Notes under the pieces: generated by a model
Seen by the model: the letters and a program-made list of their open reading frames with translations, nothing else
What the model was told of the DNA's origin: nothing
Database searches by the model: none
Part shown: piece by piece, positions 1 through 19,636 of the stretch
Layout: every line of letters starts with the position of its first letter
Position numbering within the stretch: the stretch's first letter is position 1
Program-made: the position numbers and the translations under genes
Source: a virus
IMG/VR virus record: IMGVR_UViG_3300032116_000025
Length of the DNA: 64,000 bases
Reading direction: 5' to 3' (one strand)

Positions 1-2
1 GG

Positions 3-374
3 ACGAAGCGGCAGCTTATTCGCCGGCAACAAGAGCTTTATCCGGAAAAGACCGGGACTGACTACACACAGTTCTGGCTGGGGCGAGCTTGCTTTGCTGC
101 AATCTACGGAAAGGGAAAAGCCCTAGACGATGTTCAGCCCGGCCTCTTTGCCCTGCGTCGTGGGTCCATTATCGAAGAGACCGCACAAGCCTACGGCATC
201 CTTCCAATAGAGGCGTGCCTCTATTACGAAGCCGTCCTTGACCTGCTTGCTGCCAACGACATCAGTGTCTCTTTGTGGGAGGTCATGGACACAAAAGAGA
301 AACGCCATTACTGGGATACCGCGTGGGGTGGCAAAGGCGTTCGGGTAGAAGCGCCGCCTTGCATGTTTGGGTAG
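3..374 (+). CDS. hypothetical protein, 5'-truncated at the window edge
   Basis: Frame 3 is open from the window start to TAG at 372-374 (TKRQLIRRQQELYP...EAPPCMFG). Preferred over the antisense 123..308 ORF. Confidence 0.6.
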   Translation, partial: TKRQLIRRQQELYPEKTGTDYTQFWLGRACFAAIYGKGKALDDVQPGLFALRRGSIIEETAQAYGILPIEACLYYEAVLDLLAANDISVSLWEVMDTKEKRHYWDTAWGGKGVRVEAPPCMFG

Positions 375-383
375 AATGGCGGC

Positions 384-881
384 ATGGCTACTCGGAGCTT
401 CACTGATTTACACGCACCCAGGCACCTAGGGCTTGCGCAGTGGGATGAGTACGTAAAGCCGGTGCAGTACACGCAGTTCGTGGCCACCGCAGACCCCGTG
501 CCGCGGCCACAAACACTGCTGGACTTCTACCTGAACGGAGATCTTCGGCAGATTCTAAACGACGCAGATCTTCGTCCGGATCACTACACCGACAGGCAGA
601 GAGAGGTTCTTCGCCACCTCGTTTACGGCACCCAGGCGTCTAGCCCGGTTACCACCAAAGACAAGGACGACCTGTTCTATCAATGGACCCGGCAATCGGA
701 ACTCAGCTCAAAAAGCAAAGAGCTAGTGTCGGCAATCTCTGACGCCCGCCATCGGCAAGAGGCAACAGAGAACGAGGGCATCATCATGGACGATGGGCGG
801 TCGTTGGCAGAGCACCAACAGGGCCCTTCGTCTTCTCCGACTTTTGAGGGTCAAGACTTCGGGGACAAGATCATCATCTGA
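384..881 (+). CDS. hypothetical protein
   Basis: 165-aa ORF with no SD; TAGAAT lies 6 nt upstream of the ATG. Confidence 0.7.
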   Translation: MATRSFTDLHAPRHLGLAQWDEYVKPVQYTQFVATADPVPRPQTLLDFYLNGDLRQILNDADLRPDHYTDRQREVLRHLVYGTQASSPVTTKDKDDLFYQWTRQSELSSKSKELVSAISDARHRQEATENEGIIMDDGRSLAEHQQGPSSSPTFEGQDFGDKIII

Positions 882-899
882 AATACCCTTAAAAAACCT

Positions 900-907
900 C
901 CTATAAG
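900..907 (+). promoter_or_regulatory. CCTATAAG putative phage promoter core
   Basis: Recurrent intergenic octamer, here upstream of SD AGGAGG and the ATG at 946. Confidence 0.7.
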
Positions 908-945
908 TAGTTGAAGCCGGAACTAATGTTCTGGCTAGGAGGGGT

Positions 946-1314
946 ATGACAAAAGAAGAAAAGGAAGAGATCAAGTCGCTCCAGCGGCTGGTCTCCTCTC
1001 GTGATGAAGAGATCCGCCAACTCCGCAAGGAGTTGGCGGAGGCGGTACGTCCGCCCAGCCAGCTTGTGCTGTTGCGACGGCTCTCCCGGCTTAGCCCGGG
1101 AGAGCAAGCACAAATCACTGTGAACCGCGATCAGTATAATGCGCGGTATCAAGTGGTGTTCCAAGAGAACGACGTGCGATATGAGGGAGAGGCCAACGCG
1201 CTTACCGAAGCGCTGTCATTGGTAGTGATGGTGCTCCGTCAAGAAAAACAAAAGGAGCTGGAGGAGACAGAGAGGCAGCTCCAGCTCCTCCGCGAGGAGC
1301 TGGAGCAGTACTGA
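946..1314 (+). CDS. hypothetical coiled-coil protein
   Basis: 122 aa, strong SD (AGGAGG), E/K/R/L-rich heptad-like ends. Confidence 0.8.
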   Translation: MTKEEKEEIKSLQRLVSSRDEEIRQLRKELAEAVRPPSQLVLLRRLSRLSPGEQAQITVNRDQYNARYQVVFQENDVRYEGEANALTEALSLVVMVLRQEKQKELEETERQLQLLREELEQY

Positions 1315-1320
1315 TCTCAA

Positions 1321-1365
1321 GCCTGCTCCCCGCCGCAAGGCGGGTCGAGCGGGCTTTCTCTTGCC
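1321..1365 (+). terminator. bulged hairpin terminator + TTTCTCTTGCC
   Basis: GCCTGCTC-CCCGCC-GCAA-GGCGGG-[TC]-GAGCGGGC followed by a pyrimidine tract. Confidence 0.75.
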
Positions 1366-1384
1366 TAACTTTGCCCGTAAAGTC

Positions 1385-1392
1385 CCTATAAG
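1385..1392 (+). promoter_or_regulatory. CCTATAAG putative phage promoter core
   Basis: Recurrent octamer upstream of the 1437 gene. Confidence 0.7.
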
Positions 1393-1436
1393 CGTTTGAA
1401 GCGCGGACCTATTGACGCCGCGATTCAGGAGATAAC

Positions 1437-1787
1437 GTGGCGGTAAACGCGTGCTATCGGTGTGGGTGCTCACACGAACAGTGTGAGTGCCATCTGCGAC
1501 GCTCCTCCGGAGAGATCCTCTCTCCGGAGCAAACCGTGGAGGAAGCGGGGAAAGTCCTCGCTATGCTTCGTCGCTCCCGCCCGCCCTACCGGGTCGGGCA
1601 ATGGGTCGTGCTCGGAGGTAGTGCCCCCGAGCACCTTCGCGGGGCGGAAGGCCGAGTCTCGGCCGTTCGCTCTGACGGCTCAATTCTGATCAGGCAGCTC
1701 AACGAGACTCCGGTAGAAGTTGAGTCTGCGTGGATCGCCCGCACGGGCACCACGTGGGACAAACTGGCGAAGGCCAAGGAGTCATGA
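1437..1787 (+). CDS. hypothetical protein (N-terminal Cys/His cluster, possible SH3/KOW-like C-terminal barrel)
   Basis: GTG start with SD AGGAG; CYRCGC..H..CEC; YRVGQWVVL...GAEGRV pattern. Confidence 0.7.
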   Translation: MAVNACYRCGCSHEQCECHLRRSSGEILSPEQTVEEAGKVLAMLRRSRPPYRVGQWVVLGGSAPEHLRGAEGRVSAVRSDGSILIRQLNETPVEVESAWIARTGTTWDKLAKAKES

Positions 1788-1790
1788 GTC

Positions 1791-1838
1791 AGTTACCCCA
1801 CTCCCCTACCAAGGGGTCGAGTGGGGTAACTTTTTGCC
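1791..1838 (+). terminator. bulged hairpin terminator + TTTTTGCC
   Basis: AGTTACCCCACTC-CCCT-ACCA-AGGG-[GTC]-GAGTGGGGTAACT followed by a T tract. Confidence 0.8.
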
Positions 1839-1845
1839 AAAAACA

Positions 1846-1853
1846 CCTATAAG
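1846..1853 (+). promoter_or_regulatory. CCTATAAG putative phage promoter core
   Basis: Recurrent octamer; CCTATAAGAAGATAG is identical to the copy at 11769. Confidence 0.7.
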
Positions 1854-1892
1854 AAGATAGATCGGAAACGGTTGTTTCCGCAGGAGGACCAC

Positions 1893-2339
1893 ATGATCAA
1901 GAACGGTGCTGAAGACTTGAACGAGCAGATCAAGAACCTGAGCGAGCAGATCGACAAGCAGAAGCGTACCGAAAAGGCGACCGAGAAGTTCTTCGAAAGG
2001 CCGGAGGAGCTTCCGGTCCTCATGCCGGTGAGGCCGCAGTCGATGACCGTGAACGCGGTCATCGAGTCGATTCTCGCCAAGGGCCCGTTGCCCGAGAGTT
2101 CGTTCCGGCAGGTGGTGCTCCTGCTGGCAGGAGCGAACAAGGCGGCGGATTTGGAGATCTCGATGGCGGTCATGGACCGCATCGAGCGAACGCTTCCGGC
2201 GTTCGCCATGCTCATGCAGAAGCGCCTCTCCCCCGAGGAGGCGGAGATCCATGAACTGGAACTCCGGCTGCGCAAAGCGCAGCTACAGGTGCAGCTTGAC
2301 GATCTGGAAATCGTCAAGCACGCCAAGATCAAGGCGTGA
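1893..2339 (+). CDS. hypothetical coiled-coil protein
   Basis: The ATG at 1893 follows SD AGGAGG, so it is preferred over the TTG at 1872. Confidence 0.8.
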   Translation: MIKNGAEDLNEQIKNLSEQIDKQKRTEKATEKFFERPEELPVLMPVRPQSMTVNAVIESILAKGPLPESSFRQVVLLLAGANKAADLEISMAVMDRIERTLPAFAMLMQKRLSPEEAEIHELELRLRKAQLQVQLDDLEIVKHAKIKA

Positions 2340-2343
2340 CACT

Positions 2344-2389
2344 AGGTTGATCCGCCGCCCGCAAGGGCCTGGCGGATCAACTTTTTGCC
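2344..2389 (+). terminator. bulged hairpin terminator + TTTTTGCC
   Basis: AGGTTGATCCGCC-GCCC-GCAA-GGGC-[CT]-GGCGGATCAACTT; lies between convergent genes. Confidence 0.8.
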
Positions 2390-2451
2390 AGTAAAAAGTA
2401 AAGGAGGGCGCCCAGATCAGCAGCACGTCCGGGCGCCCCCCTCTACCTAGC

Positions 2452-5400
2452 TTAGAATGCCCGACCAGCGCCTTGGTACGCGGGTGCAGCAAGGGGGCGG
2501 GAGGTCTGAGACTCTTCCTGCGCCATCTGCGTCTGGTTTAGCATATGGCCTGCTCCTACCGCCAGCCCGCCAAGGCCCAACGCGGCAGCTCCACCGGCAA
2601 TCGGGATGGCATTACGGCGCAGGAACCCAGGCTGTTTGGGTGCTTCCGGAGCGGCTGGCTGGCCCGCGGGTGCTACCGGTGTAGCCGCTCCGGTAGCTGC
2701 TACGGGCGTAGCGGCGGGAGATGCAGCGGCTGGGGCAGGAGGAGGAGGCGGCGCCACTCCCGCTGACTGCTGCGGTGGTGGCGGCGGGGGCGGAGGTGGG
2801 GGCGGCGCAGCACGCTGCGGAGGTGGTGGGGGTGGAGGCACTGGGCGCGCTGCCGCTGCGGGCGGTGGCGGTGGAGCAACAACGCGCCCCGTCTGGTTCT
2901 CAAGAGAGAAGCCAGGGGGCAGGGCAGGCCCGGGGGTTACGGGCAGCTGAGCCCGCGCGGGCGCGGAACTCGCGCCGGAGGCACGAACTAGCTCAGACAA
3001 CTCTGGAACGCGACCAGCCTCTTGCGTAACCGCTTTTGACTCTAGGTTAGCCAGCAGCGACTCAACCTGTGGGGACATTTGTCCCGGATCAGGCTTGGGT
3101 AGTGACGACGGCGCTGGTCGAGGTGCTACTTGGGTTGCCTCGTTCCCAATAGCCTCTCGACGCATGCGATCTTGGGAGGCTCGTAGAGCTTCTGCCCTTC
3201 GAGTTTCCTTTGCCGCCGCGTCAGCTTGACCCTTTGCTAGAACCTCTGCTTGCGAAGGTTCAGCGGGGCGCGCAGCAGGCGTGGCGGGGGGCTTAGCTGC
3301 GGGCTTAGCGGCAGGCGCAGCAGCGGGCGTAGCAGCGGGCGTAGTGGCTGGAGCAGTCGCAGGCGAAGTCTTTGGCGCAGGCGGTGCTTTTTCCCAGCCT
3401 AGCGCTTGGCGAGCCTTGCGGACCTCAGCGGCTTCTGCCGCTCCGCGCCCAGAGACTTCCTTCTTAACTTCGTCGACAAGCTTCTTGTCTTCCGCCCTGG
3501 CTGCGGCTCGCGCTGCCTCAGCCTTATCCAGCTTGGCTTTGTACTCCGGGCTGCCCGTTACGGGGTTTTGCTCACGCTGTTTTGACCTTTGGGCGGCCTC
3601 AGACTCCCGCTGTGTCTTACGCGCTGCCGCGGCCTGTTCTTCCCGCTCAATGGCAGCACGCTCACGCGCCTGACGCTCAGCGGCCCTGGTTCCCGGCTTT
3701 ACGTCTGAGCGCCCAGCAAACTGTTGGTCTAGCTGGTCCTTACGCTGCTGAATGCGCGCCTGATCCTTTGCTGTCGCAGCCTCAAGCTTGTTGCGGTCTG
3801 CTGCGTCGGCCATTTCCCGCTTAAGTGTATCCCGCGCGGTGTCCTGAGCCTTTAGGCGAGCTACCTCTTTAGAGGCTGCCTCCGGACCCCGGACCTTTGC
3901 TCCCGCAAGCCCTTCTCCGCTCCTAAGCGCCTGTACCTCGGCGCCTAGTTGCTTAGCTTTTCCTGAAACAAAGTTTCGACCCTGACGGCCAAAGTGAATA
4001 GCATCGTCGGCAAACTCCCGCCCTACGTCTTTCAGGGCTCCCAGCGCCTGCCGGGCAATACCTTTGGCGATCTTTTCCTGCTCCTCATTGGTCATGTACT
4101 CCCAGTCGGGGTACATGATCTGAGCAACCTTGACCGCCTGCCGCATGGCCAAGGCAGCGTTTGCCTTCTTTTCCTTTGACTTGTACTTCATGTAGTCGTG
4201 GACGGCGTCAATCGCCTCCGACGCACGGTCAATCTTGCTCTCAACCCAAGGCTCCGCGTTGTCCCGAACGGATACAGCACCAGAGAGCCGCTTAGACTGA
4301 TCCGCAAGCCGCTTGAGGTTGCTGACCATCATGTAGCCGGGCGGGTCATTGTGCTCGGAAAGCACGGACTTTCTGGAGGCTGTCTTTGGGGCTTCCGCCG
4401 GAACATAGTCTTCCGGCTTTTTACCGCCGGGAAGAAGCCGGTCGATCCCGCGAGATACGGGCTTGATAACGCCCGGAGCAACAAGGGCTAGTCCGCCGAT
4501 CTCCTGAAGATGGTAATCCTTCATCTTCTTGCCAGCGCCGTGGATTGCGGCTCCCATGGCCTTAATCCTTGGATCGCTGGCGTGCTCCATCTTTTCGCCA
4601 GCAAACTGAGCGATAGACGGGGCCGCTAAAGCAGCAATACCAACGTCGTCTAGCCGATCAGCAATAAACTCGGCGCGCTCGCTGTCCTTAGCCGCCTTGA
4701 TGTTATCGCCTTGGATCGAGGCTGCAAAATCGGTAACCGGCGGGATGTCGTCCCCGACGCCATTCCGCTCACCGTTACGCTTTGCAGGCTGAACCAGCGA
4801 GGCAATCTTCAAAGAACCAAAATCGATGTCTTGACCGCTGCTGATGCGCGCAAGGTTCAGCTCAATGAAGGCGTCGAGTTGTGTTCCACCGACTTTGGCG
4901 GCCTGCCCCGAGCCGTATGCCGAGTTCTGCTTAGTCATGTACATTCCGGCTCCAACGCCGGCAAGACCAACGGTTGGGGTTACCCACCACGGCAGCTTAA
5001 ACCCACCGCCCTCAGCTGCCGCAGCGGCTGGTGCGCCTGCGGGCGCGGCCGCTGCTGGAGCTGCGCCTGCGGCAGCGGCTGGGGGAGGCGGAGGTACCGC
5101 TGCGCCCGGAACCGGGGGAGGAGCAGCAGCCGGCACTCGGCTGCCTCCTTCGTACTTGACGTGGCCTCCGGACATAAGCCGGTCGCCTGCCCGGGTGGCT
5201 TTTACGTCTTGAGTGATGTTAGACAGCTGCTGTGGCGTCAGGCTTGTGCCCTGTAGGCCGGCCTTGAACGACGCTGCGCTGCGGGCAGATCCTGCGGCTA
5301 GTGCGTCACCAGCAGCATGGGCTACGTTCTTAGTGCCCTGAACTGCCCGGCCAGCAAGGTTAGCCGTGCCTTGAACAGCCTGCTGACCTGCGCGCACTAC

Positions 5401-6885
5401 CCGTCCGAACATGTTTGCTGCAACGTTGGCAGCCTTTTCCTGCTCTTCAGGCGACATCCGGTCCCAGTCTGGGAACACCGCACGCGCCAGCTTTACGGCG
5501 TCACCGGCGTAGCGTGGAGTAACCGGCGTGTACGCAAGGCTGGCCTTCTTGTCCCGGTTTGCCAGGTACAAGCCCGTTCCGCCTGCTGCGAGTAAGCCTC
5601 CTCCTACTACAAGCGGCGCATAACCGCCGGATCCGGTTGCCGGGGCAGCAGCTGGAGTTGCGGCCGGGGCAGCCGCTGGTACCGCCGCTGCACCTTCGTT
5701 TTGAACGGCTTGCCGAACGACGTTTTCCCGCTGCGTCCTGCTGGCCTCTGCCGCTGCGTTAAGATTCTGCTCAAACGCCTTTTCAGCTGCACGCGCCTGA
5801 TTCTTAGCCTCTGCATCGATAACTGCGGCAGCTTGGGGAAAGCGACCGCTAGGGTCTGTTGCTGAGGGTCGAAGCGGGGGTGTGTAGCCCGTAGTAGGCG
5901 CAGGTTGAACCGGTGTCGCGGCAGGAGACACGCCCCGGGTTGGCGCGGGGATTGGTGCATGCCCTTGTCCGGCTAGATCTCGCCCACGAGCACGGTAGCC
6001 CTGCTGAATCGCGTCGTCTAGGTCCTTGCCACCACGAAGCCCCCCAACCACGTGCTCTATCGGGGCGCCGCGGCGGGTGCTCTGCGACAGCTCTCCTACA
6101 GCTTTGCGAGCGCCGGATACCCCACCCACTACGCGGCTGTTTGCGGCTTCGCGTGCCTGCTGGGCAATTGCGTTTGCAATGTCTGGCGTAACTTCGTGGC
6201 CAGCGGTGGCTAGGCGCTTGGTTAGCCCAGCGGCAACCCGCTTCTCAATATCGGCCGCAGAAATGGCCAGCTTGGTTACTTCTGCTTTCTTTGATCGCAT
6301 TGTAGGCTTGCCCTTCTCGGCCGGAGCACGCTCAGGGAGGTTCTTCATGTTGGGAGTCTCGTCTGCCCATTCCTTCGCCTTCTCTTTTGAGAAGCCAGGA
6401 ATATGGCCGCCGAATGCGGCGCGCTGCTGACGCTTGGACGTGAAGGGCATCTTATTCTCCGAAATCTTTTGGCCGTGGTTCTTCTTATCGAGAACCTTAC
6501 CCTTAAACTCTTCAACGCCCATCTCCCTCATCGAGCCGAAGAAGCGGGGGTCATTATAGTGAGCTAGGTAAGCCGCCTTAGCCGCTTTGGCGTCCTTAAA
6601 TCCGAGCATCACCTTCTGCTCGTCAAACCGCCTGAAGTCTGGCTTCTTCATCTGATCGACGATGAACACGGAGCTGGAGTCGGTATCCGGGCCGACGTAG
6701 ACATCGACGTGGTCGCCGTCAGTGCCCTCTGTGCGGCGGAAGTAGCCGTAGTCGTACTTCATCACCGTGGTGCCAGATTCTCCGCTGTGGGGATCCTTCC
6801 AATGGCGCGACGACCCTCGCGGGTTTTCGATAGAAATATCGAACCCGTAGAGCTTTACCCTCTTTTTTATCGGATGTGCGGCCAT
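2452..6885 (-). CDS. large polyvalent/virion cargo protein with N-terminal inorganic-pyrophosphatase-like (InPase) domain, Pro/Ala-rich linkers and Gly-rich hydrophobic helices
   Basis: ISIENPRGSxR...YGY...GTDGDHVDVYVG...DQ...FDEQKVMLGF is the InPase signature of polyvalent proteins; internal repeats; many KxA sites. Confidence 0.8.
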   Translation of the reverse strand: MAAHPIKKRVKLYGFDISIENPRGSSRHWKDPHSGESGTTVMKYDYGYFRRTEGTDGDHVDVYVGPDTDSSSVFIVDQMKKPDFRRFDEQKVMLGFKDAKAAKAAYLAHYNDPRFFGSMREMGVEEFKGKVLDKKNHGQKISENKMPFTSKRQQRAAFGGHIPGFSKEKAKEWADETPNMKNLPERAPAEKGKPTMRSKKAEVTKLAISAADIEKRVAAGLTKRLATAGHEVTPDIANAIAQQAREAANSRVVGGVSGARKAVGELSQSTRRGAPIEHVVGGLRGGKDLDDAIQQGYRARGRDLAGQGHAPIPAPTRGVSPAATPVQPAPTTGYTPPLRPSATDPSGRFPQAAAVIDAEAKNQARAAEKAFEQNLNAAAEASRTQRENVVRQAVQNEGAAAVPAAAPAATPAAAPATGSGGYAPLVVGGGLLAAGGTGLYLANRDKKASLAYTPVTPRYAGDAVKLARAVFPDWDRMSPEEQEKAANVAANMFGRVVRAGQQAVQGTANLAGRAVQGTKNVAHAAGDALAAGSARSAASFKAGLQGTSLTPQQLSNITQDVKATRAGDRLMSGGHVKYEGGSRVPAAAPPPVPGAAVPPPPPAAAAGAAPAAAAPAGAPAAAAAEGGGFKLPWWVTPTVGLAGVGAGMYMTKQNSAYGSGQAAKVGGTQLDAFIELNLARISSGQDIDFGSLKIASLVQPAKRNGERNGVGDDIPPVTDFAASIQGDNIKAAKDSERAEFIADRLDDVGIAALAAPSIAQFAGEKMEHASDPRIKAMGAAIHGAGKKMKDYHLQEIGGLALVAPGVIKPVSRGIDRLLPGGKKPEDYVPAEAPKTASRKSVLSEHNDPPGYMMVSNLKRLADQSKRLSGAVSVRDNAEPWVESKIDRASEAIDAVHDYMKYKSKEKKANAALAMRQAVKVAQIMYPDWEYMTNEEQEKIAKGIARQALGALKDVGREFADDAIHFGRQGRNFVSGKAKQLGAEVQALRSGEGLAGAKVRGPEAASKEVARLKAQDTARDTLKREMADAADRNKLEAATAKDQARIQQRKDQLDQQFAGRSDVKPGTRAAERQARERAAIEREEQAAAARKTQRESEAAQRSKQREQNPVTGSPEYKAKLDKAEAARAAARAEDKKLVDEVKKEVSGRGAAEAAEVRKARQALGWEKAPPAPKTSPATAPATTPAATPAAAPAAKPAAKPPATPAARPAEPSQAEVLAKGQADAAAKETRRAEALRASQDRMRREAIGNEATQVAPRPAPSSLPKPDPGQMSPQVESLLANLESKAVTQEAGRVPELSELVRASGASSAPARAQLPVTPGPALPPGFSLENQTGRVVAPPPPPAAAARPVPPPPPPPQRAAPPPPPPPPPPPQQSAGVAPPPPPAPAAASPAATPVAATGAATPVAPAGQPAAPEAPKQPGFLRRNAIPIAGGAAALGLGGLAVGAGHMLNQTQMAQEESQTSRPLAAPAYQGAGRAF

Positions 6886-6952
6886 GCCAATGCGGTGCCC
6901 AGCATAACACAGGCTTACGCCAAGCTAAAAGCCCAAGAAACCCGCTATTCCC

Positions 6953-6960
6953 CCTATAAG
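6953..6960 (+). promoter_or_regulatory. CCTATAAG putative phage promoter core
   Basis: Octamer 6 nt upstream of the ATG at 6967. Confidence 0.7.
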
Positions 6961-6966
6961 CTATTG

Positions 6967-7629
6967 ATGAGCACCAATGTCTCGCTCAACAGCGGTAACC
7001 CCGCCGGCGCGGAGCCGAACTCCGCGATTGCCTGCATTGCGGGCATTTTCGTGCAGGTCTACGGTATTGCCGCCTCGAAGTTCGAGACGGCGTGTGTCGG
7101 AACGCGGGTAGCGTTCCCGATGCAACAATTCGTCCAGGAGTTTGTCGCCCAGGCGGTGAACTCCTGGAAGGGCCCCGATCGGGCGCCCGGGCAGCACTTC
7201 ATCCAGCTGAAGCTGAACGAGTACATGCTGGGGAAGTTCCTTAGCGGGGTCGGGCGCCGGACGACAGACCCAAAGGAATACTTCCCCGCTCTGTGGAGGG
7301 GAGAAGTGGTTCTGCTCGGCCGGCGAAAGCTGGCCGAACCCACCACTGGAGTGGCAGTGATCGTGTACACCCGCGAGGCGTACCTCAACGATCCACAGAT
7401 CGACGAGGCGGGAAGGCGGTGGCTGGACCCGAGGACGACCCACGTCCTTGTGGACGTCCTCGCATTCTCGAACACGATCGGCTCCCCGCAGCTTAGCCCG
7501 CACCGCTTCGTGCGGAACATGGCTGGCGGCAACAATACCCAGCTCACGGCAAGCGCCGACGAGCTTCGAGCAGAGGCTCAACTCGTGGCCGCGTACGATG
7601 CGAGCTACGTCACGGTCGGCGACGACTGA
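6967..7629 (+). CDS. hypothetical protein
   Basis: Start moved from 6709, which overlaps the minus gene, to the ATG at 6967 just after the promoter motif; ends at a terminator. Confidence 0.75.
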   Translation: MSTNVSLNSGNPAGAEPNSAIACIAGIFVQVYGIAASKFETACVGTRVAFPMQQFVQEFVAQAVNSWKGPDRAPGQHFIQLKLNEYMLGKFLSGVGRRTTDPKEYFPALWRGEVVLLGRRKLAEPTTGVAVIVYTREAYLNDPQIDEAGRRWLDPRTTHVLVDVLAFSNTIGSPQLSPHRFVRNMAGGNNTQLTASADELRAEAQLVAAYDASYVTVGDD

Positions 7630-7635
7630 CCACAC

Positions 7636-7681
7636 CGCCCGCTCCCCGGCTTCGGCCGGGTTGAGCGGGCGTTCTCTTGCC
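7636..7681 (+). terminator. bulged hairpin terminator + TTCTCTTGCC
   Basis: CGCCCGCTC-CCCGGC-TTCG-GCCGGG-[TT]-GAGCGGGCG. Confidence 0.8.
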
Positions 7682-7700
7682 TAGTAATACCGCGTTTTCC

Positions 7701-7708
7701 CCTATAAG
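7701..7708 (+). promoter_or_regulatory. CCTATAAG putative phage promoter core
   Basis: Upstream of SD GGAGG and the ATG at 7724. Confidence 0.7.
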
Positions 7709-7723
7709 CATGTGGAGGAAACT

Positions 7724-7864
7724 ATGCGACGAAACCGACGATTGGCTGACCTGGCGCGTGAGCGTCAGGCAGCGGAAGTTCGTGAGGAGGTCAAGCAAAT
7801 CGCGCTTGGCCTCCTCGCGCTCGTAGGGCTGCTGGCCACATCGTGGCTAGCGGCGTTTATCTGA
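7724..7864 (+). CDS. small membrane protein (46 aa, not in ORF track)
   Basis: MRRNRRLADLARERQAAEVREEVKQIALGLLALVGLLATSWLAAFI; has its own promoter motif, SD and terminator. Confidence 0.75.
   Translation: MRRNRRLADLARERQAAEVREEVKQIALGLLALVGLLATSWLAAFI
7741..7771 (+). repeat. 31-bp exact direct repeat, copy 1 (copy 2 at 8868-8898)
   Basis: ATTGGCTGACCTGGCGCGTGAGCGTCAGGCA occurs twice. Confidence 0.9.
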
Positions 7865-7902
7865 AAGATGGGGAGCCTAACAGGCTCCCCATCTTTTTTG
7901 CT
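7864..7902 (+). terminator. perfect hairpin terminator + TTTTGCT
   Basis: AAAGATGGGGAGCCT-AAC-AGGCTCCCCATCTTT. Confidence 0.85.
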
Positions 7903-7938
7903 TTGCTATCTGTATCCAGACCTAGGTAAACCAAACGT

Positions 7939-8133
7939 ATGAGTCGTTCAGAACGCGAGCGGTCCCTTCTTCGTCGGCTACTTGCTATTGCTGTTCACCG
8001 GCTTGGTGGGGAAATGCGGGTCACCAAAGAAGAGGTCTTTACCGGCACTTGGGAGCTGGGGATGGACCACGCAACTCTCCCAACAGTGGTTACCGGATTT
8101 CGTGTAGCTTCTAAAGATCGTGATACTCTGTAG
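7939..8133 (+). CDS. hypothetical protein
   Basis: 64-aa ORF, no clear SD. Confidence 0.55.
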   Translation: MSRSERERSLLRRLLAIAVHRLGGEMRVTKEEVFTGTWELGMDHATLPTVVTGFRVASKDRDTL

Positions 8134-8230
8134 ATAGGCCGGTGAGCAGTTTCTGCTGCTTCCTGCTCTTTACCGACCCCGAAGCAGAGCAGCGTCAGGG
8201 GAAAGACGGCCACCCTTTAGGAGCGCACCT

Positions 8231-8419
8231 GTGAACGTCACACGCACCGTCTGGTACATCAGCTCAGACGAAACGGGAAAGCTGGGCCCGTTTTCTACTC
8301 AAGAGCAAGCCTACAGCGCGATCCGCAAAGATCTTTACGCAAGCACAGATCTAGCAAAGCGCCCATCTAACGTAGTCTTGTGGCCCGAGTACGTATCGAG
8401 CGCAGACCCAAAGGGATGA
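8231..8419 (+). CDS. hypothetical protein
   Basis: 62 aa, GTG start after SD AGGAG. Confidence 0.65.
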   Translation: MNVTRTVWYISSDETGKLGPFSTQEQAYSAIRKDLYASTDLAKRPSNVVLWPEYVSSADPKG

Positions 8420-8436
8420 AATAGCGCTCCTTTTTG

Positions 8437-8444
8437 CCTATCAG
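8437..8444 (+). promoter_or_regulatory. CCTATCAG variant promoter core
   Basis: One-base variant of the recurrent octamer, upstream of the 8465 gene. Confidence 0.6.
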
Positions 8445-8464
8445 TAGGTAGAAAGGAACGCAAA

Positions 8465-8764
8465 ATGTGCATCCTAAACGATAGCGAGAAGGCCGCGGTA
8501 TCCGCCGCGGTCACCACCATCCTGGAGAAGGGTCTGCCCTTCACGGGTCAGTCGGTCACGCACGAGTTGCGTGACCGGGGCGTCAACCTCCCTCACAGGG
8601 AGATTTCCTCGTACACGCGGGAGATCTTCAACGGCGGAAAGATGCCTGGGTGGGCTTCCACCCAGGTCGTCCCGGGCCTTGGCCCGGTGATGTACTTCCC
8701 GGTCCCGCCGCGTAGCGCGGCGGGGATGGCGGCGGCGAAGCTTCGAAAGAAGCTGGTCCCGTGA
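8465..8764 (+). CDS. hypothetical protein
   Basis: 99 aa, SD AAGGA, GTGA overlap with the next gene. Confidence 0.75.
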   Translation: MCILNDSEKAAVSAAVTTILEKGLPFTGQSVTHELRDRGVNLPHREISSYTREIFNGGKMPGWASTQVVPGLGPVMYFPVPPRSAAGMAAAKLRKKLVP

Positions 8765-9498
8765 AGGACGGTAAGCGGCGGAGGGCGAAAGCCCTCCGCC
8801 TGCCGGACGTCCCTGCTTTCCAGCAGGCGGCGTCCATCCCGGTTAAGGGCCAAAAGCCCCTAACCCAATTGGCTGACCTGGCGCGTGAGCGTCAGGCAAA
8901 GGGGCAGGAGGACATGCGTGAGGTGCGCAGGCACCTTGAGCGCTCCTGCAAAGAGTCGGGACGGCAGAACACCTACGGCGGGGTGTTCTACAGCTACACA
9001 GTGTTGAAGCCGAAAGAGCTTCGGCACAAGGACAACACGCGGACCCTGTGGCACGGTACCGCCCTCGGCAATCTCACGAACATCCTAATACACGGATTTA
9101 GGCCTTCGTACGGAGGGCTTATGGGTCCGGGCGTCTACTTCGGTGGACGCCAGAAAGCCGAGGCATACTCAAGGGCCCCCCTCGGAGCGCTGCTCCGATG
9201 CGAGGTGGCCCTGGGCCGAACAGCGGATGCCGTTCCCTCGTGGGAGGACGCGCGCCCGCCGTACGACACCCTACACGGCGTGCCCGGCCAGACGCGCACG
9301 TATGGATCGTCCACCCTTCTTAACGAAGAATGGGCGGTCCTTGACCCTGCCCGAATCTCCATTCACGAAATTCGGGTGTTCACTGCAAATCGAGGCGAGT
9401 GTGTCCGATGCGGACGCCTTGTCAGCGATGAGCACCTTCAGTCGAGGTGGTCACCGCGCCACAAAGACTTCATCAGGCTTTGTGGCCACTGTCTGTGA
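8761..9498 (+). CDS. PARP-like (H-Y-E clade) ADP-ribosyltransferase with C-terminal CxxC..CxxC finger
   Basis: LWHGT, GLMGPGVYF, KAEAYS, LLRCEVALG, NEEWAV motifs; CVRC...CGHC at the C-terminus. Confidence 0.8.
   Translation: MKDGKRRRAKALRLPDVPAFQQAASIPVKGQKPLTQLADLARERQAKGQEDMREVRRHLERSCKESGRQNTYGGVFYSYTVLKPKELRHKDNTRTLWHGTALGNLTNILIHGFRPSYGGLMGPGVYFGGRQKAEAYSRAPLGALLRCEVALGRTADAVPSWEDARPPYDTLHGVPGQTRTYGSSTLLNEEWAVLDPARISIHEIRVFTANRGECVRCGRLVSDEHLQSRWSPRHKDFIRLCGHCL
8868..8898 (+). repeat. 31-bp exact direct repeat, copy 2
   Basis: Identical to 7741-7771; encodes LADLARERQA in both genes. Confidence 0.9.
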
Positions 9499-9503
9499 GT
9501 AAT

Positions 9504-9544
9504 GCGGCCTCCCCATAACGGGTTGAGGCCGCTTTACTTTTGCT
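9504..9544 (+). terminator. bulged hairpin terminator + TTTTGCT
   Basis: GCGGCCTC-CCC-ATAAC-GGG-[TT]-GAGGCCGC. Confidence 0.75.
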
Positions 9545-9565
9545 CCCAAAATATGCGCCGTTTCT

Positions 9566-9573
9566 CGTATAAG
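9566..9573 (+). promoter_or_regulatory. CGTATAAG variant promoter core ahead of the tRNA array
   Basis: Variant of the octamer, ending 21 nt before tRNA-Thr. Confidence 0.55.
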
Positions 9574-9594
9574 ATATTGCGGCTCAACTTACCT

Positions 9595-9666
9595 GCCCCC
9601 TTAGCTCAGCGGTAGAGCAACGGTTTTGTAAACCGTAGGTCGTCGGTTCAATCCCGACAGGGGGCT
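9595..9666 (+). tRNA. tRNA-Thr(TGT)
   Basis: Cloverleaf with acceptor GCCCCCT/AGGGGGC, anticodon arm ACGGT-TT-TGT-AA-ACCGT and TTCAA T-loop; no encoded CCA. Confidence 0.95.
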
Positions 9667-9669
9667 CAC

Positions 9670-9750
9670 GCGGGAATGGCGGAATGGCAGACGCACCAGA
9701 CTTAGGATCTGGCGCCGAAAGGTGTGGGGGTTCAAATCCCCCTTCCCGCA
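9670..9750 (+). tRNA. tRNA-Leu(TAG)
   Basis: Anticodon arm CCAGA-CT-TAG-GA-TCTGG; long variable arm. Confidence 0.95.
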
Positions 9751-9754
9751 CAAA

Positions 9755-9828
9755 CGGGGTGTAGCACAGCCTGGTAGTGCGCCAGCTTTGGGAGCTGGAA
9801 GTCGCAGGTTCAAATCCTGTCGCCCCGA
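9755..9828 (+). tRNA. tRNA-Pro(TGG)
   Basis: Anticodon arm CCAGC-TT-TGG-GA-GCTGG; acceptor CGGGGTG/CGCCCCG. Confidence 0.95.
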
Positions 9829-9842
9829 CTAAGGAGGTACGA

Positions 9843-10343
9843 ATGAAAAAGGTAATGGCCGCTCTCATGATGGCCTACGCCTCTACCGCAGAGGCCCAAG
9901 ACCCCTACGAACTAGGCCGCCGTGATCCTGCTCTGCTACTGGGCCAAGCTCTAGTAGCAGAAGCAGGATGGCGGTTTCACGCAGATCATCTTGCAATACC
10001 CTGGGTTATTTCTCGCCGGGCAACCCTTCCGGCATTTCGCCGAGCGTCAAACCCAGAGGTCGCAGCGTTGATTGCTTACGTCTCAGCGTTAAAGTGCGCC
10101 GATCCCGCTCGTCGGTGCGACTCTGAACGGCGTCGCCGGATGCGATCTATAACTTGGGGGATGCTTGACTCCCTTGCCCCGAAGATTGCGCGCGTTGCCC
10201 GTGATTGGTTCGGGGGTCGTCGTCATCCAGACCCCTGCCCAGACGCCTGGCACTGGGGCAGTGGGTTGCGCCGTTCGTCTCAGTTGGTTGTGCAGTGCGG
10301 GCACACGACTAACACGTTTCTTGGCAGACCCGTCTACCCGTAA
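9843..10343 (+). CDS. secreted protein, possible SleB/Hydrolase_2-like cell-wall hydrolase
   Basis: SD AAGGAGG; signal peptide MKKVMAALMMAYASTAEA; LLGQALVAEAG...AIPWVISRR resembles the SleB-type catalytic Glu helix. Confidence 0.55.
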   Translation: MKKVMAALMMAYASTAEAQDPYELGRRDPALLLGQALVAEAGWRFHADHLAIPWVISRRATLPAFRRASNPEVAALIAYVSALKCADPARRCDSERRRRMRSITWGMLDSLAPKIARVARDWFGGRRHPDPCPDAWHWGSGLRRSSQLVVQCGHTTNTFLGRPVYP

Positions 10344-10363
10344 ACCGCCACACAAGGAACAGA

Positions 10364-10915
10364 ATGCCTAACTGGTGCAGCAACCACGGATTCATCAAGC
10401 TTCCAACCAACGCTTCTCCAGAGGCTGTTGCGGCGTTTAGGGCGCTAAGCAAGGTCGAGGATGACAAAGATGAGTGGTTCGCTAAGGTGCTCCCGTGCCC
10501 CCCTGAAGCGGACTGGTACGAATGGCGGATCCGCCGTTACGGAACAAAATGGGACGTAACCCCCTCGCTTGCCGTAACGGACGACCAGATCAACTTCTCG
10601 TTTGAGTCGGCGTGGGCTCCGCCGCTAGAGTTTTTCAAGCATCTCGCGGAGACCTACGGCCTTCACTACCAGATTCAGTACTCAGAGCCGGGCTGCTGCT
10701 TCGGCGGTACCGCGTCCTACGACGGGGATTTTCAAGACAAGTACGTTGAAAACGAGGAGTACCTCGTCGCGGCGGTGGATGAGTTTGGCGAGCCGATAGA
10801 GTCGGTCCTGTGCGTCGAATCGTACGAGTCCTTCGACGCTTTCTGTAAGGCTCACAAAATTGATAGCCCAAGGCTCAAAGACTTGGTACGAGATTATTAC
10901 CGCGACCACAACTAG
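10364..10915 (+). CDS. DUF1281/YubB (Api92-like ferredoxin-like) protein
   Basis: MPNWCSN, WYEWRI..YGTKWD, FESAWAPP, YSEPG..FGG motifs. Confidence 0.8.
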   Translation: MPNWCSNHGFIKLPTNASPEAVAAFRALSKVEDDKDEWFAKVLPCPPEADWYEWRIRRYGTKWDVTPSLAVTDDQINFSFESAWAPPLEFFKHLAETYGLHYQIQYSEPGCCFGGTASYDGDFQDKYVENEEYLVAAVDEFGEPIESVLCVESYESFDAFCKAHKIDSPRLKDLVRDYYRDHN

Positions 10916-10921
10916 TGGTCG

Positions 10922-11006
10922 GGAGGAGTGGCCGAGTGGTCTAAGGCAGCGGTTTTGAAAACCGCCGTGGGGCAACCCACCAGGGGTTCGAATCCCTTCT
11001 CCTCCG
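10922..11006 (+). tRNA. tRNA-Ser(TGA)
   Basis: Anticodon arm GCGGT-TT-TGA-AA-ACCGC; long variable arm GTGGG-GCAA-CCCAC. Confidence 0.95.
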
Positions 11007-11011
11007 CTCGT

Positions 11012-11204
11012 GCCCGCCAACCACGGGCTAGTGAGGGTGGAATACCTCATGAAGAAGCGGGGTGGTTCCCGTACGTTAGATAGCCCCGGACCCCGGAGGG
11101 GTCGGAGGCGTACAGCCCGTAAGCGGTTCTGGCTGGAGGTCGTTTGGCTGGAGGCGAAAGCCGATGAAAGTCGAGTAGCCGACGAAGGTCAACCGTACTG
11201 TACG
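11012..11204 (+). ncRNA. putative structured ncRNA of unknown family (A)
   Basis: Fills the Ser-Val spacer with successive hairpins, complementary loops (AACCA/TGGTT) and a long nested stem closed by CGTACAG/CTGTACG. Confidence 0.55.
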
Positions 11205-11208
11205 AACT

Positions 11209-11280
11209 GCGGGAATAGCTCAGGGGTAGAGCGCCTCCTTTACACGGAGGAAGTCGGGGGTTCGAAACCCTCTTCCCGTA
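11209..11280 (+). tRNA. tRNA-Val(TAC)
   Basis: Anticodon arm CCTCC-TT-TAC-AC-GGAGG. Confidence 0.95.
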
Positions 11281-11284
11281 CTAA

Positions 11285-11370
11285 GCGAGCGTGGCGAAAT
11301 CGGCATACGCAGCGGATTTAAAATCCGCGGGGCCGCAAGGCTCGTGAGGGTTCAAACCCCTCCGCTCGCA
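11285..11370 (+). tRNA. tRNA-Leu(TAA)
   Basis: Anticodon arm GCGGA-TT-TAA-AA-TCCGC; long variable arm. Confidence 0.95.
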
Positions 11371-11377
11371 CTGTTAG

Positions 11378-11543
11378 TCCCGGTGAGGTGAGATCGGTCT
11401 CTCAGGAGACTAGGGCACCGGGATGGTAGTCAGATGAGCAACGTCGCTGTTGACCACGCGAAAGCGTACGAGGCGCGCCAAGTCGTCTGGCGAAAGGCAC
11501 ACCGGAAGGTGGCAAAGCCCAAGCCGTGGATATGCTGCACGGC
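11378..11543 (+). ncRNA. putative structured ncRNA of unknown family (B)
   Basis: TCCCGGTG/CACCGGGA stem with inner GGTCTC-TCAG-GAGACT, then ACGC-GAAA-GCGT, CGCCA/TGGCG, CACC-GGAA-GGTG and GCCGTG/CACGGC. Confidence 0.4.
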
Positions 11544-11547
11544 ATTA

Positions 11548-11619
11548 GGGATCGTAGATCAGTGGTAGATCAGCGGGCTTTTAACCCGTAGGTCGTGGGT
11601 TCGATCCCCACCGGTCCCA
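11548..11619 (+). tRNA. tRNA-Lys(TTT)
   Basis: Anticodon arm GCGGG-CT-TTT-AA-CCCGT. Confidence 0.93.
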
Positions 11620-11623
11620 CTTC

Positions 11624-11694
11624 TCGGGGTTCGTCTAAGGGCAGGACATCGGCCTTTGAAGCCGCGAATGATGGTTCGATTCCATCACCCCGAA
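11624..11694 (+). tRNA. tRNA-Gln(TTG)
   Basis: Acceptor TCGGGGT/ACCCCGA; anticodon arm CGGC-CT-TTG-AA-GCCG. Confidence 0.92.
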
Positions 11695-11708
11695 TCAGGT
11701 TACCACCT

Positions 11709-11748
11709 AACGCGCACTAGCCCCTCCCTAGTGCGCGTTTCTTTTGCC
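11709..11748 (+). terminator. hairpin terminator of the tRNA operon + TTTTGCC
   Basis: AACGCGCACTAG-CCCCTCC-CTAGTGCGCGTT. Confidence 0.85.
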
Positions 11749-11768
11749 CAAAATTTAAGGGGTTTCCG

Positions 11769-11776
11769 CCTATAAG
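11769..11776 (+). promoter_or_regulatory. CCTATAAG putative phage promoter core
   Basis: Upstream of SD AGGAGG and the ATG at 11792. Confidence 0.7.
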
Positions 11777-11791
11777 AAGATAGGAGGAAAC

Positions 11792-11986
11792 ATGCACCAC
11801 AACGAGTTCAAGTGCGATACCTGTGGGTCCGAGATGAGCCTCGTTTTGTACGGGGCAGGCAACTGCCCCGGCTGCCCGGGAGATATGTCATGCGCGCTCG
11901 AGGCGCGCTGCGACCGGTGCAACCCGCCGCCACCGCCGAAGCCGCGGTACGTGCCGCCGCCGGAGCCCCCCACCGATTACTGGTGA
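11792..11986 (+). CDS. small Cys-rich (Zn-binding) protein with Pro-rich tail
   Basis: CDTC, CPGC, CDRC; strong SD; has its own promoter motif and terminator. Confidence 0.75.
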   Translation: MHHNEFKCDTCGSEMSLVLYGAGNCPGCPGDMSCALEARCDRCNPPPPPKPRYVPPPEPPTDYW

Positions 11987-11995
11987 GGGGCCGCG

Positions 11996-12038
11996 CGCCC
12001 TGCTCCCCGAAAGGGTTGAGCGGGGCGTTTCTTTTGCC
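11996..12038 (+). terminator. bulged hairpin terminator + TTTTGCC
   Basis: CGCCCTGCTC-CCC-GAAA-GGG-[TT]-GAGCGGGGCG. Confidence 0.8.
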
Positions 12039-12045
12039 AATACGG

Positions 12046-12053
12046 CCTATAAG
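12046..12053 (+). promoter_or_regulatory. CCTATAAG putative phage promoter core
   Basis: Upstream of SD AAGGAGG and the GTG at 12072. Confidence 0.7.
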
Positions 12054-12071
12054 CAGACGAAGGAGGGTTGA

Positions 12072-12254
12072 GTGTCTGCCCTAAAGAACTACTACAAAGC
12101 GTGTACCCGCGCGGCAATCGCAGTCGAAAACAATGACAAGGCTGAAGAGCTGGCGGCGCTGGAGCTGGTAAAAACTACGTGGAGTGAGTTACAGAAGGAG
12201 GATCCCAGACTCGCGAAGTTCCTCACGCAAACTGGGATTGACCCGCCAAAGTAA
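12072..12254 (+). CDS. hypothetical protein
   Basis: 60 aa, strong SD. Confidence 0.7.
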   Translation: MSALKNYYKACTRAAIAVENNDKAEELAALELVKTTWSELQKEDPRLAKFLTQTGIDPPK

Positions 12255-12255
12255 A

Positions 12256-12295
12256 ATAGGGCTGGACACATCGTGTCCAGCCCTATCTTTTTGCC
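12256..12295. terminator. hairpin terminator between convergent genes (+ TTTTTGCC)
   Basis: ATAGGGCTGGACAC-ATC-GTGTCCAGCCCTAT. Confidence 0.85.
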
Positions 12296-12304
12296 TAGGT
12301 AAGC

Positions 12305-13024
12305 TCAGGCCATCTGCTCTAGCGTGATGTTCTGCACCGCGATCGGAATCGCTAGCTCAAACTGCACGGCAACCGACTCCTGAACGATGACGCCCTGCGC
12401 GTCTGTCGCAAAGGTGTGGTTGGGGATGTAGCAGCTCTCAAGGTAGAAAGCGCCGTAGGTCTTGAGGTTGGAGTCCTTGACCATGATCAGCAAGCCGATG
12501 GGCTGGCTAAACAGGTCCGAGGCAAGGTTGATGTAGAAGTTCTCGTAGCCCGGGGGCACAACGACGTTGTGCGGGTTAGGCATCGCCGCCGCACCCGGGT
12601 TCGGGAACACCGGGGGGATCTCCGTCGGCAGCTGCGTGTCCGTGTAGTAGGCATAAAGCACCCGTAGGATGCTTGGGCCGTGGTACAGGATGCGCGAAAG
12701 GCCGAGCTGGCCAATCGTGCGGCCCGAGATGAAGTACGACCGCTCCGAGCCAAGCTCGAAGATACGGCTGAACTGCCGGTTGTGGCTAAGGTTGATGTTC
12801 TGCGTAACACCAATCGGGTAAACGATGGTGGACCCGCCCGCGGGGGTAGAAATCGCGGGTGTGAACCCAAGAACACCGCCTACCGAAGCCAGCCGTGACG
12901 GGCCAGCAAAGATTCCGCAGAAGGCGCCGGAGACGAACTGCCCGTCCACCATGCCCGGGCCTTCACCTCCCGTCTGGACGTAGTTCTCGTAGGGCTTCCA
13001 GTTAGCGTAACTAGCGTTAGCCAT
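12305..13024 (-). CDS. tail tube protein (putative)
   Basis: Downstream of the sheath gene; IGVTQNINLS..RQFSRIFELGSERSYFISGRT and YLESCYI...ESVAVQFE tube-like patterns. Confidence 0.7.
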   Translation of the reverse strand: MANASYANWKPYENYVQTGGEGPGMVDGQFVSGAFCGIFAGPSRLASVGGVLGFTPAISTPAGGSTIVYPIGVTQNINLSHNRQFSRIFELGSERSYFISGRTIGQLGLSRILYHGPSILRVLYAYYTDTQLPTEIPPVFPNPGAAAMPNPHNVVVPPGYENFYINLASDLFSQPIGLLIMVKDSNLKTYGAFYLESCYIPNHTFATDAQGVIVQESVAVQFELAIPIAVQNITLEQMA

Positions 13025-13044
13025 GATCTTCTCCTAGCGGGCCT

Positions 13045-13362
13045 TCAGCCCTTCACATCTTGAAGAAATGCGTCAACGGTACGCTGACCGGCGAGCATCA
13101 TTTCCGCCAGCTTCATGCTTACTTTGTGCTCGCGCAGCTTCTCTTCTGCGCGCTCCCGCTTGCTGCGGGCAATCTCCTCGACAACCTCTCGCGGAGACCG
13201 CCCGCCAGCCACAAAGTCCATGCCCGACTCCTTGCTTTGCAGCTCGGCACGCTCTGAGGCTTCCTCGTCCTGACGGCTGCGGTGCTCTGTAAGCTCCACA
13301 ACAAGGGCGTCGTCTAGCGCCTGAGCGTGCTGGCTGTACTTGAAGTCGTCCATGGTGCTCAC
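13045..13362 (-). CDS. hypothetical virion-associated protein
   Basis: 105 aa between sheath and tube genes; translationally coupled to the sheath stop. Confidence 0.7.
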   Translation of the reverse strand: MSTMDDFKYSQHAQALDDALVVELTEHRSRQDEEASERAELQSKESGMDFVAGGRSPREVVEEIARSKRERAEEKLREHKVSMKLAEMMLAGQRTVDAFLQDVKG

Positions 13363-16550: not shown

Positions 16551-16560
16551 TTTCGTTCTC

Positions 16561-18089: not shown

Positions 18090-18090
18090 C

Positions 18091-18714: not shown

Positions 18715-18715
18715 A

Positions 18716-19627: not shown

Positions 19628-19636
19628 ACAGGGTGG

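Follow-up and report, generated by a model that had tools for sequence, protein, structure and literature searches.

Terminators are usually viewed as generic hairpins constrained only to pair, and the locus described here—the early region within a stretch of 64,000 nucleotides (nt) from the IMG/VR virus record IMGVR_UViG_3300032116_000025, the whole of which is called the window below—raises the question of why six of its hairpins, designated h1 to h6, should carry unpaired nucleotides on the 3′ arm. Each of the six hairpins makes up the putative terminator half of a repeated terminator-promoter cassette, and these cassettes are arranged around small early genes. Five of them, together with four hairpins from a sister clade of related phages, form one family with a fixed core—a G/C apical helix, a U-first pyrimidine bulge of 1-3 nt on the 3′ strand and then the pairs G-C, A-U and G-C—variation being allowed in the outer helix, in the loop and in the number of apical pairs. 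Loop, remaining hairpin and adjacent genes have here been replaced around a bulged core of 12 nt that has itself been kept, and this suggests that the core serves a purpose additional to the termination of transcription.

Six bulged hairpins and the cassettes around them

Folding by RNAfold gives a single dominant hairpin at each of the six sites, and the 3′ arm of all six carries 2-3 unpaired nt. Tested against 200 dinucleotide shuffles, the folds have z-scores of -4.3 to -6.4 and free energies (dG) of -19.9 to -31.9 kcal/mol, with 0/200 shuffles folding as well. All six begin 4-9 nt past a + strand stop codon, the details of each hairpin and the open reading frames (ORFs) next to it being listed in Table 1. 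The junction CTC/CCC...GGG/Y(1-3)/GAG is common to h1, h2, h4, h5 and h6, h3 having a different one, and the comparator terminators at 7828, 7863, 11709, 12256, 36766 and ~54021 are stems without interruption. In these respects an earlier note on this DNA has been borne out: it had claimed six hairpins with a bulge in the 3′ arm, which RNAfold places in 6/6, a CTC/CCC...GGG/GAG junction in five of them, found in all but h3, and perfect stems in the other terminators that it named, which do fold as plain ones. What it missed were the terminator-promoter cassettes, lying where genes are rapidly exchanged.

The composite motif—CTCCC, 3-22 nt, GGG, a bulge of 1-3 nt, GAG and at least three further outer pairs—occurs in the window at five distinct places on the + strand and at none on the - strand, the 200 dinucleotide-preserving shuffles containing a mean of 0.095 and a maximum of 2. 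G-U pairs are formed only when the + strand is read, and the reverse strand scores 22-26 bits lower with the covariance model R1, which together argue for a structure selected in the + strand transcript. It should be pointed out here that R1 was built from five members of equal length, with the covariation counted by hand; a MAFFT alignment of all 12 hairpins was inconsistent with the structure and was not used for the model. Over a search space of 748 kb, made up of the window and 36 related loci, R1 recovered family hairpins only, with no member either in the other 52 kb of the window or in relatives at ≤82% identity. Concerning Rfam, no match overlapped the six hairpins at the gathering score, nor at E up to 5 over positions 1-12500. 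The exact pattern of the h4-type hairpin gave 0 matches in IMG/VR and 19 in 185,579 bacterial and archaeal genomes, nearly all of them in G/C-rich lineages and mostly in Actinomycetota. These 19 were considered as a host-borne family and dismissed as background, none having an outer-stem extension or a terminator tail; the DNA around them resembles ordinary G/C-rich, probably coding, sequence.

The order within a cassette is hairpin, YTYTTGCC tail, promoter-like octamer of the CCTATAAG type and next small gene. Five of the six sites, and 11709 as well, have hairpin, tail and CCTATAAG octamer together, and most early units have CCTATAAG at their start and a hairpin with YTYTTGCC at their end. 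The YTYTTGCC motif was observed 29 times in the window against 10.9 expected; the tails end in TTGCC, often in TTGCCTA, examples on the + strand being those at 1358, 1831, 2382, 7674, 11741, 12031, 12288, 36796 and 54044. The tails of the window are T-rich (TTTTTGCC, TTCTCTTGCC), those of the sister clade being mixed in C and U, with one beginning GA. As separate observations, the TTGCC ending resembles the opening bases of the promoter motif GCCTATMAG, tail and promoter being merged at 8431-8444, and the sister-clade tails partly pair with the upstream flank, the stop codon included.

Eight exact copies of CCTATAAG are present, all on the + strand (900, 1385, 1846, 6953, 7701, 11769, 12046 and 36073), accompanied by variants at 8437, 9566 and 60146. 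TTGCC and the octamer are 8 or 20-22 nt apart, with no -35 element at a fixed spacing, and a consensus scan of the + strand from 1 to 20000 gave no promoter-like site of the sigma-70 type. The CCTATAAG motif is also found in the sister-clade locus L001, more distant relatives having CCTATCAG; the 117 single scattered matches returned by a scan of IMG/VR for tail plus promoter are regarded as noise. In T4-type phages, the promoter-early stem-loops (PeSLs) combine stem-loops that terminate with repeated cassettes serving as recombination joints (Arbiol et al. 2010, PMC2839356; Comeau et al. 2014, PMC4122927). The cassettes of the window lie in a region of rapid exchange and thus provide an ordinary route along which one terminator type may spread, and exchange of the PeSL type explains that spread.

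Table 1 Hairpins, remaining cassette parts and RRM-domain genes in the window and in sister-clade loci (dG in kcal/mol; R1, score with the covariance model)
Feature	Position	Strand	dG	Bulge	R1	Details
h1	1319..1356	+	-30.2	UC	51.7 bits	z -5.3; outer helix 10 pairs, apical helix 6 pairs, GCAA loop; 5 nt past the stop of ORF 946-1314
Cassette 1 remainder	1358..1392	+				tail CTCTTGCC 1358-1365; CCTATAAG 1385-1392; before ORF 1437-1787
h2	1791..1831	+	-27.7	3 nt, GUC or UCG by register	23.9 bits, E 0.015	ACCA loop, outer helix 12-13 pairs; downstream of ORF 1437-1787
Cassette 2 remainder	1831..1853	+				tail TTTTTGCC 1831-1838; CCTATAAG 1846-1853; before ORF 1893-2339
h3	2345..2382	+	-29.0	CU		variant junction GCC/GCCC...GGGC/CU/GGC; closes the rightward early block as its final terminator; convergent to the InPase-domain gene (1477 aa)
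h3 tail	2382-2389	+				TTTTTGCC
h4	7636..7671	+	-31.9	UU	53.9 bits	UUCG loop; downstream of ORF 6967-7629
Cassette 4 remainder	7674..7708	+				tail CTCTTGCC 7674-7681; CCTATAAG 7701-7708; before 46-aa ORF 7724-7864
h5	9504..9532	+	-19.9	UU	23.4 bits, E 0.021	apical helix 3 pairs, 5-nt loop; downstream of PARP-domain ORF 8761-9498
Cassette 5 remainder	9533..9573	+				T-rich tail ending TTTTGCT; promoter variant CGTATAAG 9566-9573; before tRNA array from 9595
h6	11995..12028	+	-26.3	UU	25.5 bits, E 0.006	apical helix 3 pairs, GAAA loop; downstream of ORF 11792-11986
Cassette 6 remainder	12031..12053	+				tail CTTTTGCC 12031-12038; CCTATAAG 12046-12053; before ORF 12072-12254
Sister-clade member	L001 9224	-		UU		
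Sister-clade member	L001 8356	-		U		
Sister-clade member	L215 16332	-		UC		
Sister-clade member	L216 5579	-		UC		
RRM-domain protein	L001 7686-8060; L215 15819-16196; L218 12461-12835	-				

Conservation of the core in related phages

The relatives were located via two proteins of the window, the InPase-domain protein of 1477 amino acids (aa), encoded at 2452-6885 on the - strand, and a conserved protein of 239 aa (12305-13024, - strand), and they fall into three groups. The loci L004-L006 represent the same phage; L001-L003, L129 and L215-L222 make up the sister clade; and the third group is a wide family of phages of 160-195 kb at ≤82% identity. The 239-aa protein of the sister clade is 92-93% identical to that of the window, and the third codon positions of its gene are 62% identical between the window and L001; the unconstrained sites are therefore well diverged. 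When the window, L001, L215 and L216 are compared, the early genes between cassettes prove largely unrelated and most early ORFs lack a counterpart, the structural genes being 83-92% identical.

A lack of conservation of the bulge in orthologous terminators had been named in the earlier note as a refutation of its reading, and in the nearest sister clade the bulge is present at 4/4 counterpart positions. Between h4 and its counterpart at L001 9224, 30/32 stem bases are common and 0/4 loop bases, and the spacers to the promoter are unrelated. The hairpins h1 and L001 8356 follow homologous gene ends (33-35% identity) and differ in both helices as well as in the loop, with the core kept and the bulge shortened. 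The hairpins h6 and L216 5579 constitute the sole significant DNA match between 11960-12310 of the window and its L216 counterpart, the flanking genes being unrelated on both sides. Within the sister clade, the hairpins at L001 9224 and L215 16332, which stand after homologous genes in near-identical strains, have the same core and wholly different outer helices. Even the variant h3 has counterparts, in L001 and L129, that also possess a CU bulge, their stem sequences differing from those of the window.

Taking the nine family members together, positions 1-8 of the outer helix all change on both sides with the pairing kept, the loops are GCAA, UUCG, GAAA, ACCA and AUAAC, and the apical helix has 3-6 pairs. 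Across the twelve core bases, by contrast with this variety, there is one difference, a C to U change that retains a G-U pair. The bulge bases are pyrimidines in 17/18 cases, with U first wherever the register is clear, and the bulge is positioned 8-13 pairs above the base of the hairpin and 3-6 pairs below the loop. What had been put forward from the window, i.e. a conserved bulge amid covarying stems, holds among the window paralogues and in the related genomes alike.

Outside the two sister clades the picture is a different one. In the distant relatives sampled (73 metagenome, 11 IMG/VR and 7 found via the InPase-domain protein) the terminators are mostly plain, and plain stems occupy the corresponding place in the more distant relatives. 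One-sided irregularities across the wider phage family comprise 24 on the 3′ side only, a number that includes the family's own copies, versus 16 on the 5′ side only. Two of the sister-clade hairpins reach 22-24 pairs by pairing of the tail with the upstream flank.

Concerning the phage itself, the G+C content of the window is 58%, and an identical 1477-aa protein is also encoded on metagenome contigs of 160,858 and 167,803 bp; the genome is therefore that of a large uncultured phage, with a size of about 161-168 kb (~165 kb). Comparison of a cultured-phage collection with the window revealed tRNA genes as the sole matches and no close relative, and a search of IMG/VR with the 1477-aa protein gave zero matches. 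The window codes for a fused beta-beta′ RNA polymerase—a single ORF of 2067 aa at 43335-49538 on the - strand, with beta-type (Rpb2 domain 6) and beta′-type (Rpb1 domains 2, 3 and 5) domains—as well as for gyrase B and a gpA-type terminase. The closest phage polymerases, those of the Vibrio phages D181, D148 and D69 and the Salmonella phage Arash, are ~29-31% identical. From 1 to 12.3 kb, the + strand presents a run of small ORFs together with eight tRNA genes.

A few neighbouring features may be mentioned in their own right. The terminator of the 1477-aa gene (2396-2448, - strand), standing back to back with h3, has a stem of 22 pairs with one unpaired base near the loop and a dG of -39.6 kcal/mol. 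The 46-aa ORF at 7724-7864 (+ strand) opens with an arginine-rich stretch (MRRNRR...), its tail being hydrophobic; its LADLARERQA segment reappears in the PARP-domain ORF at 8761-9498 (+ strand), and a similar 46-aa ORF lies within another cassette in L216 (5356-5496, - strand). Between two small early ORFs, at 8136-8212 on the + strand, the window matches the Rfam CyVA-1 RNA (RF02965) with 47.7 bits, the gathering score being 41.4. Finally, in distant relatives (L009 15530-16200, L007 15155-15510), the divergent intergenic region upstream of the early block contains arrays of short repeats, both direct and inverted, on either side of an A/T-rich centre, and has the appearance of an origin or of a regulatory hub.

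What the bulged core may be for

The reading favoured here, to which we would give about even chances, is that the hairpins are the terminators of PeSL-like shuffling cassettes and that their bulged core has been selected, most likely as a docking site for an RNA-binding protein; the narrower claim, that the bulged core itself is under selection, is moderately probable. Termination would be the work of the pyrimidine-rich tail together with the lowest 8-13 pairs, the bulged core lying above this terminating part at a varying distance from both loop and tail. Selection would then maintain the core as a separate feature at which a trans-acting RNA-binding protein may dock, and the docked protein could tune read-through or shield the 3′ end of each early transcript. 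Selection on the core is favoured because spread of the PeSL type alone leaves two things unexplained, namely the alternation of fixed blocks (core, tail and octamer) with unrelated ones (outer helix, loop and spacer), and the fact that the searches built around the core returned no copy without the bulge, though a deletion of 2 nt would yield one. A diffusible factor is preferred to the polymerase as the putative reader because 8-13 pairs separate the bulge from the tail and 3-6 from the loop, which speaks against a contact with the polymerase at a fixed place.

Several points weigh against this reading. The invariance of the core is partly circular, the family having been defined by a regular expression and by a model seeded on core-bearing copies, and it is only the comparisons by position that escape this circularity. 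The members come from two sister clades only, linked by descent and recombination, and the counts are not independent. The same apical helix and loop are found in the plain-stem terminators L001 7670 and L129 2414; the history is reticulate, and in such a history a neutral quirk could hitch-hike. Four of the ten early-region terminators have plain stems and presumably work. The portion read of the 161-168 kb genome amounts to 64 kb plus 7.5 kb (~72 kb), and no candidate binding protein was found. The sister-clade early region encodes, just after a family hairpin, an RRM-domain protein of 124 aa with a glycine- and arginine-rich tail (Table 1), which was rejected as the partner of the core since it has no counterpart in the window. 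The bulge may alternatively be nothing but an inherited quirk, i.e. 2 nt in an ancestral terminator that spread via cassette duplication and PeSL-type recombination and that, neutral and situated above the termination-relevant stem, have not yet been lost. This explanation is possible, if on the unlikely side. It accords with the restriction of the family to two sister clades and its absence at ≤82% identity, with the exchange of cassettes as units between unrelated genes, with the reappearance of apical modules in plain-stem terminators and the coexistence of such terminators in the same region, and with the roughly equal numbers of 3′-only and 5′-only irregularities in the wider family. It does not sit well, however, with outer helices and loops that have diverged beyond similarity while the core and its U-first pyrimidine bulge remain, nor with the lack among the copies seen of a 2-nt deletion, which would stabilise the stem; moreover, conserved blocks alternating with unrelated spacers are the pattern of constraint and not that of recent copying.

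The remaining explanations differ in what would read the core. That the transcribing polymerase, be it the fused beta-beta′ one of the phage or that of the host in a modified form, reads core and YTYTTGCC tail together as a stop signal is improbable: the phage does have its own multisubunit polymerase, the tail is sequence-specific and enriched, and the C/U-mixed tails of the sister clade are poor U-tracts, so that something beyond a classical U-tract may matter, yet the distance from bulge to tail varies by at least 5 pairs, and stems that are plain but have the same tail occur just as often, both in the early region and elsewhere in the window. The earlier note had also pointed to endonuclease processing like that of the T7 early transcripts; on this explanation, RNase III or another double-strand-specific nuclease would cut at the bulge and separate the early messages. 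In the T7 early RNase III sites, an internal loop is set within some two turns of helix, and R1.1 is cut at an irregularity of the 3′ strand. The hairpins of the window resemble the T7 sites R0.3-R1.3 in their location between early genes and in their 3′-strand irregularity, and the two sister-clade hairpins that lengthen to 22-24 pairs would also suit a nuclease. The geometry is nevertheless a misfit, the window helices having 13-17 pairs, of which the apical part has 3-6, and thus remaining below the approximately two turns of classical substrates, with a one-sided bulge of 1-3 nt in place of an internal loop; in addition, each unit has its own promoter and its own terminator tail, so there is no need for cutting messages apart, and processing is left with very little probability. 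As to a DNA recombination site, a folded single strand with extrahelical bases might move gene cassettes in the manner of the attC sites of integrons, whose consensus places the boxes R″ and R′ (RYYYAAC and GTTRRRY) at the stem base. Hairpins with unpaired bases and a conserved core do flank cassettes whose genes are unrelated, and the 3′ arm contains GTT in 5/9 members, four of which read GTTGAGC and fit the R′ consensus. Against it, 4/9 members read GTC, the matching AAC is missing from the other arm, the core is mid-stem rather than at the base, the G-U pairs and the strand bias point to RNA, and no recombinase or integrase domain turned up among the window ORFs scanned; an attC site was rejected on the first three of these grounds, and the explanation as a whole has scarcely any probability.

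If the core is read by a factor, as the docking-site reading would have it, a single protein could govern many early transcription units together, which would be a new means of timing the early programme in a large phage with its own polymerase. If the bulge is only a quirk, the locus would still offer a clear example, from outside the T4 group, of terminator-promoter cassettes as joints for gene shuffling.

Comparison with known systems

With intrinsic terminators in general, the hairpins have in common a G/C-rich stem placed right after a stop codon, a pyrimidine-rich tail and stable GNRA or UUCG tetraloops. They differ from them in their long stems (13-17 pairs), the conserved core and the fixed bulge, as well as in a tail that ends specifically in TTGCC and that, in the sister clade, is C/U mixed and not a U-tract. 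Two other kinds of RNA element were considered and rejected. A kink-turn has a 3-nt bulge followed by tandem sheared G-A pairs, whereas here the G-A-G past the bulge faces C-U-C in Watson-Crick pairs; readings as boxB or put were ruled out by sequence.

The closest likeness in layout is that to the PeSLs, both systems consisting of small repeated intergenic cassettes that unite a terminator stem-loop with an early promoter (PMC2839356, PMC4122927). In both, the stem-loops are G/C-rich, the cassettes are concentrated among small genes of unknown function, and the intervening genes are inserted, deleted or replaced between close relatives. The present phage, however, is not related to T4 and encodes a beta-beta′ polymerase of its own; its promoter is the CCTATAAG octamer without a -35 element and is not of the sigma-70 type; and recombination at its cassettes is deduced from gene content. 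The PeSL papers are silent on a bulge, the word "bulge" occurring 0 times in PMC2839356, whereas here it is the 12-nt bulged core that is fixed and the remaining stem that is variable.

Concerning the core itself, the nearest likeness is the arginine sandwich of HIV-1 TAR and of 7SK stem-loop 1, in which an arginine is stacked beneath the first bulge base and capped by it, this base pairing with the second base pair past the bulge (Pham et al. 2018, PMC6189040). These elements have a G-C pair, a U-first pyrimidine bulge of 2-3 nt and then the pairs G-C and A-U (PMC6189040), and 8/9 family members read G/U(Y)/G-A with C and U opposite, the register of h2 being ambiguous; h3, reading C/CU/G-G, matches the C-capped class of PMC6189040. 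The likeness is limited to secondary structure, with no arginine-rich partner found, the h3 counterparts of the sister clade do not fit, and a terminator of a bacterial virus is set here against a eukaryotic transactivation element. That the core forms a pocket of the arginine-sandwich type, docking an arginine-rich protein of phage or host, is a doubtful proposal. Such a protein might act on every early cassette at once, switching the early terminators off or on, or stabilising the early messages; and were the proposal true, the core would parallel the N/boxB systems, with a bulge being read in place of a loop, and would be the first element of its kind inside terminators themselves.

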